64,000 bases of DNA, taken from an uncultured Armatimonadia bacterium. Its GTDB lineage: Bacteria > Armatimonadota > Zipacnadia > CAVVLO01. The notes under the pieces were generated by a model. That model was not told where the DNA came from, did not search any database, and saw only the letters and a program-made list of their open reading frames with translations. The stretch is taken from the NCBI GenBank assembly GCA_963749155.1, contig CAVVLO010000003.1, forward strand, positions 32,001 to 96,000, in the 5' to 3' direction. This document shows positions 9,960 to 49,729 of the stretch, one piece after another (position 1 is the stretch's first letter; every line of letters starts with the position of its first letter). The position numbers were made by a program, and so were the translations under genes.

Positions 9960-10045
9960 ATTGTAAGCTTCTTGTGAGGCGCTGGCAAAGAGGCAATCTT
10001 TCTGCGATAGAGGGCCCGAAAGCAGGCGCTTCGTCGTGCTACAAT
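9960..10045. promoter_or_regulatory. Divergent sigma70-type -10 boxes
   Basis: TACAAT on minus at 9960..9965 (GH57 gene) and TACAAT on plus at 10040..10045, just before the rnpB 5' end. Confidence 0.55.
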
Positions 10046-10049
10046 GAAG

Positions 10050-10451
10050 GCAGGAGTGGGTCGCGGGTCCGCGCTCGGCAAGTTGCCGGGTGAGGAAAGT
10101 CCGGACTCCACAGGGCAGGGCGCTGGATAACATCCAGGCGGCGCAAGCCGACGGAAAGTGCAACAGAAAGCAGACCGCCTAAGCCCCTTCGGGGGCCGGT
10201 AAGGGTGAAACGGTGGGGTAAGAGCCCACCAGTTGCTGTGGCGACACGGCAAGCTGGGTAAACCCCGCTCGGAGCAAGGCCAAATAGGAAGGGGCGCCTG
10301 GCAGGTCCAGGCTAGGGTCTGCCCGACCCGACGCCTTCGGGTTGGCCGCAAGAGGCGCTTCGCAAGAAGCGTCCCAGATAAATGGACTCGGCCCGGACCC
10401 CTTGATTGGGGCTCCGCGAGCACAGAATCCGGCTTACAGACCCACTCCTGC
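10050..10451 (+). ncRNA. rnpB: RNase P RNA, bacterial type A
   Basis: Conserved GAGGAAAGTCCGG, GGAAAGTGCAACAGAAA, GGGTGAAACGGTGGGGTAAGAGCCCACC, GGTAAACCCC and AGAATCCGGCTTAC; terminal P1 pairing GCAGGAGTGGGT/ACCCACTCCTGC. Confidence 0.97.
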
Positions 10452-10702
10452 TCTATCTGACAGCTTAACCGACCAGCGATCACCTCGAACTAGCGGGGGT
10501 GCGGGGGCACTGCCCCCGCGCTGTTCTGTAGCCTTTCCCTGATGTTTCAGTTTCCTGACCCCAGGTCAGGTCGTTCCTGATACCTGGACATGCCGGTCCT
10601 GTTGCGTGAGGGGGTCTAGGCCACTCCTGTCCTATAACCAGGCCTCTGCTCCTTGCCCTCCGGATATTTCCGAAGAGTAAATCTTTCGCAAACCTTTGCC
10701 CT

Positions 10703-10784
10703 AACTGGCACGCCAGGTCGCACTTTGGCACGTTTCTTGTGTCGCTATAAGCCCCGGGTGGGAGGGGGTTTGGGATGGGGTTTT
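10703..10784 (+). repeat. Copy A of the sigma54-like box / G-tract intergenic element
   Basis: AACTGGCACGCCAGGTCGCACTTTGGCACGTTTCTTGT...AAGCCCCGGGTGGGAGGGGGTTTGGGATGGGGTTTT; 76 of 82 positions match copy B by manual alignment. Confidence 0.9.
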
Positions 10785-11000
10785 GAGAGCCTTTGTTACG
10801 CTTTCTGCAACTGTTCGGAAACAGGACGGTTGCAGGATTTTGATCTCGCTCAGCCAGGCACGAGAGGGCGCTAGCGCTCCAGGACGCTCCGAACTGGCTC
10901 CAATTGCTGCCGGAATCCCCTCATGCATACCCTTCGCGCCTTCCCCCAGCCTCCACTCGCTGTTATGATAGAAGCCTCACACAGCAGGGAGTGAAAGACT

Positions 11001-13460
11001 TTGAAGAACTCTCACGCGGCCTCGCGGTGCGCTCTTGGAGCAATGATTGCAATGCTCTGCCTCGGTTTTTATGGAGCTTCTTTCCCCCAGCCTCTAATGC
11101 CCAGCCTGATTGTCTCGGGCGAGGAGACCCTGGTCGCCTCTGCCATCGCCACCGAACCTCCTTTCAACGCTGATGGCACTGGGAAATTGGACGCCACCGA
11201 GGCTATCCAAGCAGCTCTGAACGCCGTCGGAAGCGCTGGAGGCGGGGTTGTCTACCTTCCTCCGGGGCGTTATCTGCTTGGGGGGACACTGAAACTGCCG
11301 TATGCGACTACCCTCGCCGGCGCTGCAGAACCCCTGGCCAGGAATGATATCGCCTCAGGTACCCTCCTGCTCGTTACAAGCGCAGGCGGTGATGAGCAAG
11401 CTCCTCCCCTGCTCGACCTGATGGCGGTCGAATGCGGCCTGATGCACCTGGCCATCTACTACCCTCTGCAGCGGCCTGATGCGCCTGTGCCCTATCCTTT
11501 CACCATCAGCGGTCAGATGATGAGAGTGCGCGATATTATCCTCTGCAACAGCTACAACGGCGTGGAAGTGAAAGCCGTCAACTGCAGTGTCATCGCCCGA
11601 GTACGCGGCACTGCTCTCCGAAGGGGGCTTGTCGCCCCACACAGCGGAGAATTCTCCTGGATGCATGAGGTGCAGTTCTCGCCTGATTTCTGGGCCGATA
11701 CCGCGGACCAACTTGGCGATCCGAACTGGCGCGCCGGAGATGCGGAACTGATCTCCGACTATTGTAAGGCTAATCTGGTTGGGTTTGAGTTTGGCCGGAT
11801 TGATGGGATCGCCCTCTACAGGTGCGGGGCAGAAACGTCCAAAACTGGCTTCCTCGTCCAGAAACGCCCCGAGGAGAACCCCCACCCCGTATTTGGCCTG
11901 GGTGGCGCAGTTGCCGGGCTGATTGGGAGTCGCGAAGAAGTCGGCTGGGATCCCTGGTACTATGGCCTGCATTACGCTGACCTCGACCTGGTGCCTGAGG
12001 CGAAGGACAGAAGCTACGAGTTCGCCGCCACCCCCAAAGCCGCGCGCACGAGCGATGAGGCTTTCTTCCTCGTCACCAAGCCCCCCTATGGAGCGGTTGG
12101 GAATGGCCAGGTAGATGACACCGAAGCTCTCGAGAAGGCCCTTGCAGAGGCCGGTGATGCGGGCGGTGGGATCGTCTATCTCCCCCAGGGCGAATACAAG
12201 ATAACGCGCCCTCTGACCGTGCCCGAGGGTGTCGAATTGCGCGGCCCACTCGGTGTGAACAAGGCCCGCGAGTACCGTCAGACTTGCGCGCTGGCCTGTT
12301 ATGTGGACGCTGGGGCTGCTGAGGCCGAGACTGCCCCTGCCTTCATCACTCTCGAGGCCCACTCAGGCTTGCGCGGCCTCAGTGTCATCTACCCCGAGCA
12401 GTCATACGAGCCCGAGGCCTTTAAGGCTTACCCCTACACGGTCCGGGGCGCTGGTGAAGGGGTCTGGGTGGTCGATGTGCTGCTGGTTAACTCCTGGCTT
12501 GGGATCGACTTTTCCACGTACAGGTGTGACAGCCATCTGGTGCGTGATGTCTGGGCCACCGCGCTGCGCAAGGGGCTGGCAGTTGGAGGCGGCTCGCGCG
12601 ATGGGCAACTGGAGCGTGTTACCTTCTCTTATGGTCCCTGGGCCGAGGCGGGGCGCTTTGCGGCCAACAAGACCGAAAGCACCACGAGTGCTCTTTCTGC
12701 CTGGTCAGCCGCTGAAACCCTCTTCTACGAGTTTGGAGACTGTCAAAACGAGACGACCTGGGGCCTGGCAGGCTTCCTGCCCAAGGTGCAGTACCATTTC
12801 GTCGACCAGGGCGCCGGAGGTTGCCGCGATGCGGAGTTTTGGCTTTCTCTCCACGATGTCGCCCAGCGCACCAGTGTGCAACTCGACAGCGGAAGTGATA
12901 TCGATTTTCTCGGTTACTTCGTGACTGGCTCTTACGACCGGCAGCGCAACTGGTTCGAACTTGGGAAGGACTTCGCCGGGCCTGTCTCCTTCTATGCCAT
13001 CGCGGTCCACCCCCCAGGGGTAAACCACCCCTTCCGCTGCGCGCCCGCGCAGGTGAGCTACTACCCCGAGGCTTCTCTCACGACCGGGAGACCAGTGACC
13101 GCCAGCGCAGGGGCGCCTGATAGCGCAGTGGATCGCTCTCTTTGGACCTTATGGGAGGCCCCTCTCGGCGCCACTCTCCAGGTGGACCTGGGCGAAGAGT
13201 TCCTCCTTAACCGGTGCGCAATTGCGACTGGTGGGTTTACTCAGTTGACCGAGCAGCAGCAGCTTGAAGCCGACTTGTTTGTAAGCCTCGATGGGCAGGA
13301 TTTCCGCCCGGTTGCCCACCTTGCGACTGGCGAATTTTTCTGGGTGGACCAGCCAGTGGAGCCTGTCCGCGCCCGCTATGTCGAGCTGCGCATCACTGGT
13401 TGCGCCGTGGACGGCCTGGCTCATATCGCGAGTTTCGATGTGTTTGGGAACCTTGACTGA
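11001..13460 (+). CDS. Secreted beta-helix protein (two Pectate_lyase_3-like repeats) with C-terminal F5/8 (discoidin) domain
   Basis: Two copies of the 'DGxxDxTxAxxxALxxxGxAGGGxVYLPxGxY' motif; C-terminal LQVDLG...RARYVELRI. Confidence 0.8.
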   Translation: MKNSHAASRCALGAMIAMLCLGFYGASFPQPLMPSLIVSGEETLVASAIATEPPFNADGTGKLDATEAIQAALNAVGSAGGGVVYLPPGRYLLGGTLKLPYATTLAGAAEPLARNDIASGTLLLVTSAGGDEQAPPLLDLMAVECGLMHLAIYYPLQRPDAPVPYPFTISGQMMRVRDIILCNSYNGVEVKAVNCSVIARVRGTALRRGLVAPHSGEFSWMHEVQFSPDFWADTADQLGDPNWRAGDAELISDYCKANLVGFEFGRIDGIALYRCGAETSKTGFLVQKRPEENPHPVFGLGGAVAGLIGSREEVGWDPWYYGLHYADLDLVPEAKDRSYEFAATPKAARTSDEAFFLVTKPPYGAVGNGQVDDTEALEKALAEAGDAGGGIVYLPQGEYKITRPLTVPEGVELRGPLGVNKAREYRQTCALACYVDAGAAEAETAPAFITLEAHSGLRGLSVIYPEQSYEPEAFKAYPYTVRGAGEGVWVVDVLLVNSWLGIDFSTYRCDSHLVRDVWATALRKGLAVGGGSRDGQLERVTFSYGPWAEAGRFAANKTESTTSALSAWSAAETLFYEFGDCQNETTWGLAGFLPKVQYHFVDQGAGGCRDAEFWLSLHDVAQRTSVQLDSGSDIDFLGYFVTGSYDRQRNWFELGKDFAGPVSFYAIAVHPPGVNHPFRCAPAQVSYYPEASLTTGRPVTASAGAPDSAVDRSLWTLWEAPLGATLQVDLGEEFLLNRCAIATGGFTQLTEQQQLEADLFVSLDGQDFRPVAHLATGEFFWVDQPVEPVRARYVELRITGCAVDGLAHIASFDVFGNLD

Positions 13461-13509
13461 GACTCCTCAGCCTGTTGCAGCACCGTAAAACTTATGGAAA
13501 TCTTTCTCC

Positions 13510-13591
13510 AACTGGCACGCCAGGCCGCACTTTGGCACGATTCTTGTGTTCATATAAGCCCCGGGTGGGAGGGGGTTTGGGACGGGGTTTT
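13510..13591 (+). repeat. Copy B of the sigma54-like box / G-tract intergenic element
   Basis: Direct repeat of 10703..10784 with 6 mismatches; followed by GCAGGA-N17-CGAA at 13618..13644. Confidence 0.9.
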
Positions 13592-13697
13592 CGAGCTTTT
13601 TTGCGAGAGAGTGTGACGCAGGAGAAAGACTTCAGCAACGCGAAAGTTACATAACAATCCAGCTAGGTCAGGTCTCTGTCTGGCTTGAGGAGGATTT

Positions 13698-15132
13698 ATG
13701 ATGAGAGCGCCACTTTTACTGGTTGTTTTGCTGCTTGCAGTCCTGCCTTTTACTTTCGTCCAAGGTGAGCCAATGAATCCAAATACCGACTGGTTCCACG
13801 ATGCCGGCTGGGGCGTCTTCGTGCATTATCTTTACGGGTTGCAGAACGGTCCTGAAAGCATAAATAGCCTCGGCATCGAAACCTCCTGGGATGAGTGCGT
13901 GGCTGCCTTCGATACTGAGCGCTTCGCAGAGCAAATGGCCGAGGTAGGCGCCCCTTATGTCATCTTCACAGTGATGCAGGTTTCGAAGTATATGATCGCG
14001 CCTAACACGACCTATGACGCCATCAGCGGATATAAGCCGGGCGAGGCTTGCGCTTCGCGCGACCTCATCTACGACCTGTCCGAGTCGCTCAGCAAGCGCG
14101 GCATCAAGCTGATGCTCTACTACACCGGCGACGGGCCACGAGGCGATGGGCAGGCCGGTGCCGCCTTTGGCTGGCAAGACCCCGTTACCTTCGATTTTGT
14201 TAAGCAGTGGAGCGACGTCGCCCGCGAATACAGCGAACGCTACGGCCAGCGTATCTCCGGCTGGTGGGTGGACGGTTGCTATCCCTGGATCGGCTACACT
14301 GATGAGAAGCTTGCCCTGTTCGCCGAGGCATTGAAAGCCGGTAATAGCAAGTCTATCGTCGCCTTCAACCGAGGCGTGGACCCTGTTGTGATGTCCTACA
14401 CGCCTGCCGACGATTACACTACCGGCGAACAAAACGGCTTCTTTGAGCTACCAGCAGGTCGCTGGCTCGATGGCGAACAGTGGCATATCCTTTCCTTCCT
14501 CGGACCGACCTGGGGCCAGCCCGGCTGCAAATACACCAAGCGAGAACTCGGCGAATATGTCTGGGAAGTAAACCAGCGTGACGGAGTCGCTTCTATCGAA
14601 GTGATGCTCTACCGAGATGGAGAACTGGACCGTTCGCAGTTTGAGCTGCTCAAGGCTGTCGGCCGCATTAAGGCCGAGTTGGACGCCAATCCACCCCAGC
14701 CCGTGCCACCTGGTAATCTGGCCTTTCGCAAGCCGGCCAGGCTGCTCAGCCTGGATGGTTCTCACGAACTGGTTGTAAACAGCGGCACGCAGTTCGCTCG
14801 GTTGGGTGTTGATGGCAATCCCGCCACCTACGCGCTGGCGGGTGGAGAATGGGCCTGGACCTATGAAACCGATCTTGTCGATCCGGCTGAGGTAAGCCGG
14901 ATCAAGATAAACTTCGCCGCTGGCTTCCCCACCGAGTTGGAGTTGCGTCTTTCGACCGATGGCGTCACCTGGCAGACGGTCGCGCAAGGCTCTGACCTCG
15001 ACGGTAGCCCCTTCGAGGCCACCTTCCCGCCGACACTGGCTCGCTATGTGCGCGTGTGTTCCCTCAAGCCCGATGGGCCCAGACCAGCCCGGCAGCCAGA
15101 TGTCCGTCTCCGAGTTGGAGGTTTATAAATAA
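13698..15132 (+). CDS. GH29-like (alpha-L-fucosidase-type) TIM-barrel hydrolase with F5/8 domain; frameshift near 15078
   Basis: WFHDAGWGVFVHY, RGIKLMLYY, RYG..ISGWWVDG motifs; the natural C-terminus DQPGSQMSVSELEVYK is in another frame, ending 15132. Confidence 0.75.
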
Positions 15133-20884: not shown

Positions 20885-21165
20885 AGCGATTCCCCCCATC
20901 AGGGCAAACAGTAGTCGAAGCCCGGCCAGGGGTCTGGTCGCCATCCCACCACCTCCAAAGGCTCAGTGCCTGCCTCACTGGTGATCGTCCAACCTCAATC
21001 AGGCCAGGCCATACCCCCGCGCTGTCTTTCGCCACACCTGGTTGAATTCCTATCGACCAGTGGTGGGTAACTGGGTTTGGGTCTTTCAAGACTACCGCCT
21101 GCAAGAAAACTTCAGCCACGCGACTGTAAACGTTGCTTATACTTGGTCTTGCTGGAGCCTCGGTA

Positions 21166-21229
21166 TTGGGTTTCTTGTACCGTTTTAACTCCAGGTGGGG
21201 GGGGATTGGGAGGGGATTTCGGATTTTTT
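21166..21229 (+). repeat. Diverged copy D of the G-tract intergenic element
   Basis: TTGGGTTTCTTGT...AACTCCAGGTGGGGGGGGATTGGGAGGGGATTT aligns with copies A-C but has lost TGGCACG; followed by CAAGGG-N16-CGAA at 21245..21270. Confidence 0.6.
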
Positions 21230-46506: not shown

Positions 46507-49495
46507 CTAGCTTCTGTTGATTATCTCGCGCTTCACGCGCGCAAGCAGGTCATCGAGCGAGCCTTCCATCAGATACAGCTTCCCCCTAACGACCGCGGCT
46601 CTGCCCTGGGGCGTCTCAGGCCAAAGCGGATCCGCATGCACGCAAGGGATGAGCGCATTGGAGAGGAGGGAGGCTGCGTTCTGCCAGGCGATTCCGAAGA
46701 CATATTTGCCATCTTCGGAGACCACAGCGACTACTGGCGCATCAGCCAGATCGCTGCTGGCGCCCCAGTCGCCGGCCTGCTGGACTGGCGGGCCACCCTC
46801 GAGGGCATAATGGCAAAGCTCCCATCGCCCCTTGCCTCGGTCTGTGTCAGCCATTTTGACCCATTTACCGCCCGTGTGGAGGTAGGTGCGCTCCAGTTCC
46901 TGGTCACCGAAAAGGGTCCCTGTAAGCACAGGGCAGACCTGTGAGTGAACAGGCAGAGTCCCGCCCGCACCGTGATTCTGGCACCACAGCATCAGGTCGC
47001 AATCGTCCTCATTGGGGGACACCCGCCCTCCAAGCACGCGGTCGGCCTCGCTCCACTCGAACCAGAAGCCACCTCCTGGATCGGGATTCCAGACTTTAGA
47101 CCAGTCTTTTGATTGGGCCGGGACATCACTCCCAGCGGGATTGTGATCCATAAAGTGCAGTTTGTCCGTGGCGAAGCTCTCCGGGTATCTCAGGTCAATT
47201 GGCGCGTCCATCCAGGGGGCCTTCACCAGCAGAGAATGCCATTGGCCTGTGCCCTTGTCGGGGCCAACGGCAAGCTGGATACGCGCTGGCTCTTCCTCTG
47301 GAATACCCGCAGTGACACGGACGGTCTGGGGTTCCGCGTTGCTGTCGAGCAGGAAGATGGCCGCGAAAGTGCCATCCGGCTCACTGCGCACCTGCACGCC
47401 ATCAAGCGCATCGGACCGATTCAGGCGGACGGGTGTCCAGCCTGCAGATTCCTTGCGGAAAAGCCGCGGCCAACGATAATCTGTAAGGCCGGTAACGATT
47501 ATAGGCAAGCAACTACGACCGCCTGCCAGCGTGAATTCGGCTTCATTCGCTTCGGCCCGCACTGTGGTCGGGAAGTCAGAAAGAGCCACTCCCACTGCGA
47601 CTTCGAGCAGCCGCGGCCCCTCGGAGCCAAACACGCGCGCCTCGCGCTCTGCAGGCGCGGCGCTGTCATAGGGCGCATAACAGGTCCAGTAGGCTTCGAG
47701 GGTGATGGTGTCGCCTGGCTGCAAGGTCAGCTCATCGGCATCTACCGAGAGGAAGAGTCGCGTGTCGCCAGAGGTCTCGCACCAGATGCCCGCTGCTGGA
47801 GCGAGGTTCCGCCCACCGATATTGGTTTCGAACTTGCGCAAGATGATGGCGTTGGAGCCACGATCATCATCAAACATCGTTATATAGGAGTTCTCGCTGG
47901 GCAACGGCGCGCCAGCAACTGCGTAATGGTTCTTCTCGAAAGTGAGTGCGGTCGGCGCTGTCCCTGTGCAGGCAAAAGTTTTGTAACGAAGTCTTTGCAC
48001 CCAGGTTGCAATCTGTAACAGGCGGAACTCGGTCCTGGCAGATTGCAGGCTGATCGGCTGGTTTACGGTGCATTTGACCCGGACGAAATTGCGCAGCTCA
48101 TCAGCACTGGGCAATTCCCAGGTTTCGACCTCGGTGAGCACCTTCTCATCACTGGTCAGATAGTCGAAGCCGATGTCCATCCAGTTGGGGCCGGTACTGT
48201 GATAGAGCGCGCGCTGGAATTCGCTGAAGGCCCAGTTGTTGTTCTCGGCATAGGAGAGGAACATATGCCCTGCGACATTGTCATGCTGAGGCTGGCCTGA
48301 CCAGAAAGTCGGCTGGCTCATCGCGCGATAATCGGCAATCGAGACACCCGGAAGCCCTCCAAACTTGAAGGGTACGTAACAAGTTGTTTCCGTAATGCCG
48401 GTGGAACTGTGGTAGTAGTCCATCCAGGCGCCAAGCGAGGAGAAGTGCTTGGTCATATGCCTGCCCCAGTTTTGGTGCAGGTGCAGGCTGCTCAAGGTGA
48501 CCTCTTCACCAGGCTCGAGGTAGAGCGGGAAGATAGTTTCATCGAACTGAGTGTCATTAGGATTATAAAACTTCTCTTCTTTTTCGCCCGCGAAGTTCTT
48601 CGAGATCTGCACCACAAGAGGCATCGGATGGCCTTCCGAGTCCAGCACCGTGCCTCCTTCAACCACGCCCGTGCCCTCGTGGCAGATATAGACTTTCCGC
48701 GGCCGGAAGTCGTTCCGGACGCTGAACCTGACCGGCTCGATAGTCCTGCGGTATCTGGTAGAAATGGCGCTGGAAGCCTCCCCCGCCCTCTGTCCGCGAG
48801 GTGATCAGATAGCAACCCCGCACCTCATCGTAGCGCAAGGCTTGATGGGCCGAGAGGGTGATCAGGCGGTCGGCGGGCAGTGGAGGTTGCTCTCCGAAAA
48901 GCGGACCGGCGAAGGTCTGCTTGTCTCCGGTCTTGAAAGGCTGGCAGGGCCAGGTCTGCTGGACAAGTCCCTCGAGGCCTGCGCTTGCGGCATCGAAATC
49001 GCCCACGGCATGCCAGGTGACAGAGACGAGGAGTTTTTCCGGATAGCAATAGAGCGCCACATCGGCTTTGAGCGGAGCCGCGTTACCGGCTTCATCGGCC
49101 GGTTGCAGGTCGAACCAGTGGACCTCCGAGTAGTAGGGCCCGCGGCGATAGAGATTGATCCGGCTGTTGCCGGTAAAGTTGGTGGTGGACCAGACCTTCC
49201 CCGCTGCATCGGTAAGGGTGAAAGCCAGCCACTCGCGGCCTGAATCGGCTTCTACGAGGCGATGTGGGGCGCGCAGTTCACCGATTACGTCATAGTCGGC
49301 GGCGATGACCTCGAAAGCGGTGCGCGAGGCATCGGTATAGCGCACTTCGAGTTCGGGACGCACTGGATAGGGCTGGAACTGGAAATCTGTCTGCCAATTG
49401 GACATCGCTAGATCACCTGGCTGGGCGTTAACGCAGGGAATGAAGAGCATACTGAGAGCGGCGCAAAGCACCGCCAAGAGGGCTTTTGAGCTCAT
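46507..49495 (-). CDS. Secreted hypothetical protein (~995 aa); frameshift near 48741
   Basis: SD GGAGG plus ATG 49495, signal peptide; a one-base shift joins ...QIPQDY to EPVRFSVRNDFRPRKVYICHEGTGVVEGG of ORF 46507..48666. Confidence 0.75.
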
Positions 49496-49623: not shown

Positions 49624-49729
49624 AAAAACCCCAAAATCCCATCCCAAACCCCCTCCCACCCGGGGCTTCTAGCAGTGCAATATGCGTGCCAGTTGCAGTG
49701 TTGGTAACGCGTTGTGGCGAAAGATTTAC
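49624..49729 (-). repeat. Copy C of the sigma54-like box / G-tract intergenic element
   Basis: Minus strand reads GTAAATCTTTCGC...CTGGCACGCATATTGCA-CTGCTAG-AAGCCCCGGGTGGGAGGGGGTTTGGGATGGG; the 31-nt core (49638..49668) is identical to copy A; consensus -24/-12 box at 49676..49691. Confidence 0.9.

Follow-up and report, generated by a model that had tools for sequence, protein, structure and literature searches.

A recurring sigma-54 promoter cassette with a candidate G-quadruplex-type element at the nominal start site, tied to glycan-degradation loci in an uncultured Armatimonadota bacterium

Promoters of the -24/-12 type, which are read by the sigma-54 factor RpoN, carry upstream activator sites for bacterial enhancer-binding proteins (bEBPs), a class of AAA+ ATPases, as at glnAp2 and pspA. 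It is a long-held rule that sigma-54 always needs such an activator ATPase. Work by Holder and Hartig in 2014 and by Beaume et al. in 2013 has reportedly placed G-quadruplex (G4) motifs in bacterial promoters and 5' leaders. To our knowledge, few G4 motifs conserved throughout a regulon have been described in bacteria, whose genomes are generally poor in them. Another kind of conserved G/C-rich non-coding word is the BoxC/PIT/TMECO repeat of Escherichia coli and other proteobacteria. TMECO numbers 3610 copies in 262 proteobacterial genomes; its G blocks are separated by a 3-nucleotide (nt) loop, TTA or CCG, it favours no class of genes, and it acts neither as a promoter nor as a terminator (Holder et al. 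2015, PMC4666352). Here we describe a promoter cassette that joins an RpoN-type box to a G-tract element and recurs in a 64,000-nt stretch of DNA (hereafter the window) from an uncultured sediment bacterium of the Armatimonadota. The window corresponds to C3:32001-96000 (contig:position) of the host genome, an assembly of 4.17 Mb in seven contigs with about 60% G+C that is rated 100% complete.

The recurrence of this module, noticed in a first-pass annotation of the window, was confirmed by direct reading of three copies (A, B and C) and a decayed fourth (D), and it extends to 17 strong copies genome-wide. These were found with a regular expression allowing up to six substitutions, and nhmmer recovered the identical 17, all with E <= 1.3e-14; copy D (E = 0.095) is a decayed relative of them. 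Within the window, the 27-nt core alone matches three times at up to three mismatches, against 0.00 expected from 100 shuffles, and the cores of copies A, B and C are identical or differ by one letter. An alignment of the 17 copies gives the order of parts: two 11-nt direct repeats (GTAAAyCTTT-n-GTAAAyCTTTCG, period 11 nt), a spacer of 24-25 nt whose sequence has diverged, a box of the form TGGCACG-N4-TTGC/T, a short spacer and, 9-11 nt after the box, an almost invariant core of the form CCCC-GGG-N-GGG-N-GGGGG-NNN-GGGA-Y-GG. Mean information per column is 1.25 bits in the repeats, 0.46 in the first spacer, 1.55 in the box, 0.62 in the second spacer and 1.74 in the core, which agrees with the earlier observation that the G-tract is better conserved than the box; the two phased direct repeats had been overlooked as part of the unit. 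Similarity between cassettes is motif-wise rather than uniform across the unit. Since motifs and spacer lengths are kept while spacer sequences have drifted, the pattern points to selected sites and not to recent copy-and-paste, and we conclude that a motif-wise conserved RpoN promoter cassette exists in this genome. Three groups of cores can be told apart: group 1, GGGTGGGAGGGGGTTTGGGATGGG; group 2, GGGGTGGGTGGGGGATTGGGATGGT, comprising a pair on C2 and a pair on C6; and group 3, GGGAGGGTGGGGGTTAGGGATGG and its variants, at C3:139761, 146430 and 147995.

Copy A, on the forward strand, begins with the direct repeats GTAAATCTTTC G CAAACCTTTGC at 10677-10699, the proposed upstream activator site, with AAAyCTTT at -47 and -36 from the start of TGGCAC. 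The RpoN -24/-12 box TGGCACGTTTCTTGT was read directly at 10726-10740, and the G-quadruplex-type core CCCCGGGTGGGAGGGGGTTTGGGATGGGG occupies 10752-10780, with its nominal +1 at 10752. Copy B, also forward, has repeats GTAAAACTTAT GGAAATCTTTCT at 13485-13507, box TGGCACGATTCTTGT at 13533-13547 and a core of the GGGACGGGG variant at 13559-13587 (nominal +1 at 13559). Both copies show the tandem TGGCACG and the TTGT at -12 that had been recorded for them; the extra TGGCACG stands at 10706-10712 (+), without a -12 partner, in copy A and at 13513-13519 (+) in copy B, and a second TGGCACG is also found at C1:416914. Copy C runs on the reverse strand, with repeats AAAATGTTTCT GTAAATCTTTCG at 49740-49718, box TGGCACGCATATTGC at 49691-49677 and core at 49665-49638 (nominal +1 at 49665). 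Copy D (+) retains a decayed box ATTGGGTTTCTTGT at 21165-21178 and a diverged core-like sequence CCAGGTGGGGGGGGATTGGGAGGGG at 21191-21215. Among the window copies, only A has a terminator-like hairpin followed by TTTT in its leader (10803-10837, +).

The assignment of the box to RpoN is supported by its sequence and by the presence of rpoN. The spacing between GG at -24 and GC or GT at -12 is kept in 16 of 17 copies, the exception being C1:95293 (TGGCCC...CCTGC). Strict matches to TGGCAC-N5-TTGC number 38 in the host genome versus 4 for a reversed control, and the core is present at 11 of the 38. The boxes therefore form a genuine family that outnumbers the cassettes, and the core is an add-on to a subset of them. 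The host has a complete rpoN gene (L015:556-1959; L169:2321-3727, which equals C1:910320-911726) with Sigma54_AID, CBD and DBD domains and a canonical region I. The gene next after rpoN encodes an HDOD-HisKA protein, and it is followed by a REC-HisKA-HATPase gene driven by a sigma-54 promoter.

The first-pass annotation had named rpoN and enhancer-binding proteins as the genes to look for, and only the former was found. A search of the host genome with PF00158 returned two Clp-type ATPases only, regular-expression matches to GAFTGA and ESELFGH were all spurious, with no bEBP among them, and tblastn with an NtrC-type protein of a relative hit receiver domains only. Among 20 relatives of the same class, RpoN and bEBP are both present in 16 and both absent in four, so that the host is the sole RpoN-positive, bEBP-negative genome of 21. 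An assembly gap may lie behind the missing bEBP. The cassette thus shares with classical RpoN promoters the -24/-12 spacing, a full-domain RpoN and an upstream site at a fixed distance, and differs in that a bEBP accompanies RpoN in all 16 RpoN-positive class relatives and none was found in the host. The upstream site differs as well, consisting of two 11-nt direct repeats 36-47 nt before the box instead of a distant inverted repeat, and the G4-type core at about +1 to +28 is a feature of the host cassette that classical RpoN promoters do not have.

The direct repeats are themselves phased to the box, lying 47 and 36 nt before TGGCAC in core-bearing promoters; 14 of the 21 repeat matches in the host genome have a box at +25/26 together with the core. 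Direct repeats of 11-nt period are the usual type of site for OmpR-family regulators. A single sigma-54 promoter, C1:931780, has the phased repeats and lacks the core; it is the best partial nhmmer match (E = 0.0064) and lies about 45 nt before a gene for a 240-residue response regulator with REC and Trans_reg_C domains (OmpR family; L170:2332-3051). Because the lone repeat-bearing, core-less sigma-54 promoter drives such a gene, we infer that the repeats are the site of an OmpR-type regulator, which putatively autoregulates through the repeats at C1:931780. A repeat-only site, GTGAAACTTTTGTAAAGCTTTGG, without sigma-54 box or core, was found in the window at 50744-50722 (-), before a gene for a pilin-like DUF1559/N_methyl protein with a TATAAT box; the site lies about 115 nt before the TATAAT box and about 175 nt before the DUF1559/N_methyl start. 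The repeat-binding factor may thus act at ordinary promoters too.

The proposal that an RpoN transcript would start at the G-tract agrees with the nominal start of most copies. With +1 placed 12 nt after the -12 base, 14 of 17 copies have their nominal start within 0-2 nt of the first C of the C-run, 10 of them precisely at that C; the other three are taken up below. The G-rich strand is the non-template strand in all 17. When the 16 distinct host-genome copies were aligned, all seven loop columns varied and only one of 14 columns in G-tracts 1-4 did, the single change being in the degenerate C1:95293; the fifth tract is variable. A G4 rule with loops of up to 3 nt fits 16 of the 17 copies (C1:95293 fails), in keeping with the canonical short-loop motif first reported, and it also fits copy D, in which the loop sequence and the box are lost. 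G4Hunter gives 2.33 over the core G-tracts. With a G4 term in ViennaRNA, nine of nine leaders were predicted to form a three-layer G4 closed by a C:G helix of 3-8 base pairs, at -22.7 to -38.9 kcal/mol as opposed to -9.8 to -20.2 kcal/mol without the term. Such motifs are otherwise scarce in the host genome: with loops of up to 7 nt there are 169 versus 388-438 in five block shuffles (about 2.5-fold depletion), and with loops of up to 3 nt there are 36 versus 44-68, 17 of the 36 coming from the cassette family. The cassette family is therefore maintained against an avoiding background. Plain poly-G runs of 15-18 nt make up six of the 36 short-loop motifs.

Several other features around the core were considered. 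A sigmaH-like promoter that had been read between the core and the start codon was not supported: the alignment contains no conserved block there, and a scan with a sigma-70 model, which is not a sigmaH model, gave no sigma-70-type site in the regions of copies A, B and C. An intrastrand triplex was rejected, as judged by eye, because the C-run is too short, at 4 nt, and the two G blocks do not mirror each other. An attenuator or terminator after the core was rejected as well, since a terminator-like hairpin is present in only two of 17 copies. A downstream motif, AAGTGTTTCG, seen by eye in six copies plus two variants, was tried as an inverted form of the upstream repeat and dropped (6 of 17 versus 3 of 17 in a control region, not significant). 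A bacterial class A RNase P RNA lies at 10053-10452 (+; 309.8 bits), 225 nt before copy A. In metatranscriptome contigs of four runs, it is the sole part of 10000-14000 to rise above low-depth scraps; these contigs, consisting of the RNase P RNA (10053-10452) and a few low-depth pieces, none of them on copy A or B, are uninformative on transcription from A or B.

Cassettes are tied to glycan-degradation loci, as had been suggested from the window alone. Copy A precedes a gene for an 819-residue protein that combines a pectate-lyase-like fold (Pect-lyase_RHGA_epim) with an F5/8 type C domain (11001-13460, +), and copy B precedes one for a 476-residue protein that is alpha-L-fucosidase-like, contains an F5/8 type C domain and has a signal-peptide-like N-terminus (13698-15128, +). 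Copy C is followed by a gene for a 278-residue protein with a signal-peptide-like start and no Pfam match (48659-49495, -) and then by one for a 719-residue protein without assigned function; the product of the gene after copy D is uncharacterised and also has a signal-peptide-like start. Elsewhere in the genome, the genes after copies encode GH3, BD-FAE esterase, alpha/beta hydrolase, ThuA plus GFO/IDH/MocA oxidoreductase and GH42-like proteins, and most genes that flank copies are glycan-related (GH3, GH29-like, GH95, GH76-like, GH42-like, GH127, BD-FAE, GDSL, ThuA, Laminin_G_3 and pectate-lyase-fold). The four window copies all point to the next gene, as first noted; over 18 copies, this holds for 12, while four are convergent and two uncertain. 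Most co-directional copies lie 97-222 nt before the open reading frame (ORF). The GH3 gene after the cassette at C3:541186 (L010:1733-4388, which equals C3:541432-544087) is interrupted by a frameshift or an assembly error, so that two overlapping ORFs, one of 738 residues and one of 193, hold consecutive parts of Glyco_hydro_3_C (profile positions 1-132 and 135-200); a DUF2229 gene is split in a similar way (L170:3129-3771).

The core was then sought outside the host genome, which is alone in its family. It was absent from 40 same-class relatives and from 400 other genomes of the host phylum, and no match was obtained in viral contigs. Scanning public genome contigs for a sigma-54 box followed by the G pattern gave ten matches, all poly-G assembly artefacts. 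Sigma-54-type boxes followed by long poly-G or poly-C were seen in metagenome-assembled genomes of several phyla (L035-L044), several of them at contig ends, and are probable sequencing or assembly artefacts. The result was different in metagenomes, where a scan with the pattern CCCSGGGHGGGHGGGGGHHHGGGAHGG found at least 122 loci with the core, mostly in GC-rich soil contigs; nhmmer added one diverged copy in these loci. None of the 122 among the matches listed has a sigma-54 box. In the one locus examined (L048), the tyrA protein is 82-89% identical to proteins that NCBI names Gaiellaceae. The core is therefore present in a second, unrelated lineage and is specific neither to sigma-54 nor to the host genome: in soil it occurs behind other promoter-like boxes and inside a coding sequence.

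In 35 of the at least 122 soil loci listed, the core is part of the reading frame of a hydantoinase A (hyuA) gene, at its 3' end, and encodes ...PPGW[EV]G[VA]RDG; Pfam Hydantoinase_A was confirmed in four of four such loci examined. The codons used are not the preferred ones: T is the third letter of the V/A/D codon in 35 of 35, compared with 9.6% T among T/C/A in the same ORFs; the Arg codon is AGG in 31 and CGG in four, compared with 8% AGG among AGG and CGG; and the Asp codon is GAT in 35 of 35, compared with 22% GAT. All of these alternatives are allowed by the search pattern, so that the retention of non-preferred codons points to constraint at the nucleotide level, and pure coincidence was rejected on this ground as the source of the hyuA matches. 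The codon usage suggests that the core has a nucleotide-level function inside the hyuA coding sequence. In L065:1476-3026 (-), L093:2-1555 (+) and L105:2-1552 (+), the core falls within the last approximately 20 codons, some 45 nt upstream of the next gene, whose start overlaps hyuA.

The remaining 87 or so listed soil loci are mostly short gaps in housekeeping operons, for example aroF-[core, sense]-tyrA (four loci) and hemC-[core]-hemD (two loci). A TAnnnT hexamer stands 12-15 nt before the core in 22 of the 83 non-coding listed loci with enough flank, versus about 1.7 expected; this excess implies that a second, actinobacterial-type -10 promoter also places the start at the core. GTCACA/GGCACA repeats of the Gaiellaceae-like class lie about 40-50 nt before the core in a subset of copies and resemble MtrA boxes (PMC4285127), a likeness that we treat as a lead only. 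Like the host direct repeats, they are of a kind typical of OmpR-family sites, and their sequence differs from GTAAAyCTTT. The core is thus an autonomous, strongly constrained G-tract element, which in the host cassette lies at the nominal start site.

No described element that would account for these observations was recognised here or in the first-pass annotation. Rfam reported only RNase P in the window at the gathering threshold and nothing in 20 soil loci; at E <= 10 it gave no match to copy B and, for L048, chance-level matches only, far below gathering scores. Our survey of the literature on sigma-54 in connection with G-quadruplexes, on RpoN without bEBP, on bacterial RNA G4 leaders and on G4 in Gaiellales found no description of the module. 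The core resembles known promoter and leader G4s in having at least four G3 tracts with short loops, near the start and on the non-template strand, for which an effect on expression has been proposed; those are single loci or statistical enrichments, whereas here one 27-nt word stands at about 17 promoters and is shared with another phylum.

We tentatively lean, with somewhat less than even confidence, towards the explanation that the unit is the promoter cassette of an RpoN glycan-degradation regulon with a G-quadruplex-type cis element at the start site. An OmpR-type response regulator would bind the direct repeats, and sigma-54 RNA polymerase would start at or 1-2 nt before the C-run. The core would form a three-layer G-quadruplex closed by a short C:G helix, either in the nascent 5' end or in the displaced non-template strand or in both, and would thereby tune post-initiation steps such as promoter clearance, 5'-end stability or early termination.

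A number of observations weigh against this explanation. The start site, like the RNA and any G4, is predicted from sequence, and RNA G4s reportedly stay unfolded for the most part in bacterial cells. In the group-3 copies (C3:139761, 146430 and 147995) the core begins 8-10 nt upstream of the nominal +1, so that their RNA would lose the first one or two tracts and an exact 5'-end RNA G4 is not universal; nor is the closing C:G helix kept in groups 2 and 3. Some 20 further well-formed boxes (TGGCACG-N4-TTGCAT) are without a core, and no enhancer-binding ATPase was found in the host genome to open any sigma-54 promoter. The proportion of co-directional copies, 12 of 18, is not far from chance, and the convergent ones face the 3' ends of GH76-like, Laminin_G_3, GH95 and HEPN genes; divergent GH127 and GDSL genes stand behind two of them. 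The soil matches say nothing on G-tract conservation there because the search pattern fixes the G positions, and in some Gaiellaceae-like contigs the core is antisense to both neighbours, for example between purE and purB (two of two loci). Finally, several loop letters of the soil copies are not free to vary, with T in the middle of loop 3 in 82 of 83 copies and T in loop 1 in 76 of 83, and a sequence-reading partner accounts for this more readily than a bare G4 does. Together, the shifted group-3 copies, the convergent ones, the antisense soil copies and the biased loop letters argue against a model that invokes 5' RNA alone.

Such a partner is at the centre of an alternative that we consider unlikely, in which the core serves as an operator in duplex DNA and is bound by a sequence-specific protein that would act at or over the start site, for instance as a repressor or roadblock, with the G-runs and loop T's as base contacts. 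The biased loop letters fit it directly, as does the A of GGGA, which is invariant in 15 of the 16 distinct host-genome copies, and so does the CCCC prefix, which is conserved even where the closing helix is not. The group-3 shift of 8-10 nt, about one helical turn, leaves the core overlapping the promoter and would be tolerable for an operator, not for a 5'-terminal RNA fold. The same protein would, however, be needed in two unrelated lineages, with its site in none of the 400 genomes of the host phylum; the core has no symmetry and is neither a dyad nor a direct repeat, the forms that bacterial operators usually take; and no candidate protein gene is linked to the copies. Copy D, moreover, keeps the potential to form a G4 and loses the sequence. 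This behaviour of copy D and the identity of the core across phyla argue against an operator read by protein alone.

A little less probable still is the reading of the core as a G-rich repeat like BoxC/PIT/TMECO, dispersed and essentially selfish or structural, which was copied along with paralogous glycan genes and has no regulatory role. TMECO is a precedent for a multi-copy, conserved, G/C-rich intergenic word across taxa with loops less conserved than G blocks, and its type-A loop, TTA, is the commonest loop 3 in the soil copies (PMC4666352). Local duplicates with identical flanks occur in the host (C2:1354402/1359631, the C6 pair and C1:429931/434783, for example), and Gaiellaceae-like contigs have the core, pointing either way, in short gaps within housekeeping operons. 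The defining TMECO pattern, CCCTCNCCC-N3-6-GGGNGAGGG-N3-GGGNGAGGG (PMC4666352), nevertheless has no match on either strand of the host genome. Where TMECO has a C stem of 9 nt, the host core has a C-run of 4 nt; the host core also has no G stems that form mirror repeats, and its 1-nt loops favour G4 over triplex. TMECO has no strand bias or link to promoters (PMC4666352), whereas all 17 host copies lie behind a sigma-54 box in one orientation, with the G-rich non-template strand just after the promoter and with the spacing kept within 2 nt in 14 of 17 despite diverged spacers. No copy in the host genome is without a promoter, the genome is otherwise G4-depleted, and hyuA keeps non-preferred codons. 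No consistent terminal inverted repeats were found around the cassettes (copies A and B have inverted pairs on their flanks, at positions that differ between the two, and copy C lacks such a pair), and viral contigs gave no match.

The host genome also contains a separate REP-like hairpin family, GTTTCGGGAG-N4-8-CTCCCGAAAC, with 42 exact copies versus none for the control, frequently in arrays. The hairpin stands directly before the repeats in six cassettes, and a 202-nt tandem repeat with this hairpin (2.9 copies, 98% identical; L001:815-1394, which equals C1:429245-429824) is located just upstream of the cassette at C1:429931.

Qrr RNAs are a multi-copy family of sigma-54-dependent small RNAs, and it is conceivable, at a low probability, that the cassettes are multi-copy small RNA genes of this sort whose conserved 5' end acts in trans. 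Conservation coincides exactly with the predicted 5' end, the remainder being divergent, a run of at least four T's comes right after the closing helix in five of ten group-1 copies, and the four copies without a co-directional gene run 250-390 nt towards hairpins that belong to convergent genes and are terminators in both directions. Only two of 17 copies, however, have a terminator-like hairpin and U-run within 260 nt, and 12 of 18 copies precede a co-directional ORF, most of them at 97-222 nt. A complementary C-rich partner was not found (a regular expression on both strands of the host genome returns the copies only, and a 6C-like C-rich RNA is absent), and a G-rich seed locked in a G4 would pair poorly. 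Very improbable, finally, is a CsrA-binding leader that ties the carbon-storage regulator to glycan genes through GGA motifs, since, although csrA is present (C2:407987-408139, 80.9 bits), group-1 cores have two GGA motifs 12 nt apart (GGGAGG and GGGAUGG), group 3 has its first GGA in loop 1 and AAGGAUG comes shortly after the core in the two group-2 copies on C2, only one GGA remains in the two C6 copies, C3:147995 and most soil copies, the sites are 100-220 nt from start codons, and the invariant G3/G5 tracts and CCCC prefix are left unexplained.

We return to the reading of the unit as an RpoN promoter cassette with a G-quadruplex-type element at the start site. In its boldest form, the element would be a naturally selected G-quadruplex switch set precisely at the start site, employed in two phyla, which together with the repeat-bound OmpR-type regulator helps sigma-54 RNA polymerase to open or clear the promoter. 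We regard this form as a long shot; if true, it would provide a route of sigma-54 transcription without a classical AAA+ activator. The question touches the activator rule for sigma-54 in any case, as the host has retained RpoN together with more than 30 good -24/-12 promoters although no activator ATPase could be recognised. The cassette marks out a glycan regulon under sigma-54 whose phased direct-repeat site is unusual and in which one fixed 27-nt word marks the nominal start site of about 17 glycan-enzyme promoters and recurs in soil contigs. Being short and mutable, this sequence lets one ask whether bacteria use a G4, or a factor that reads G-runs, as a means of control.

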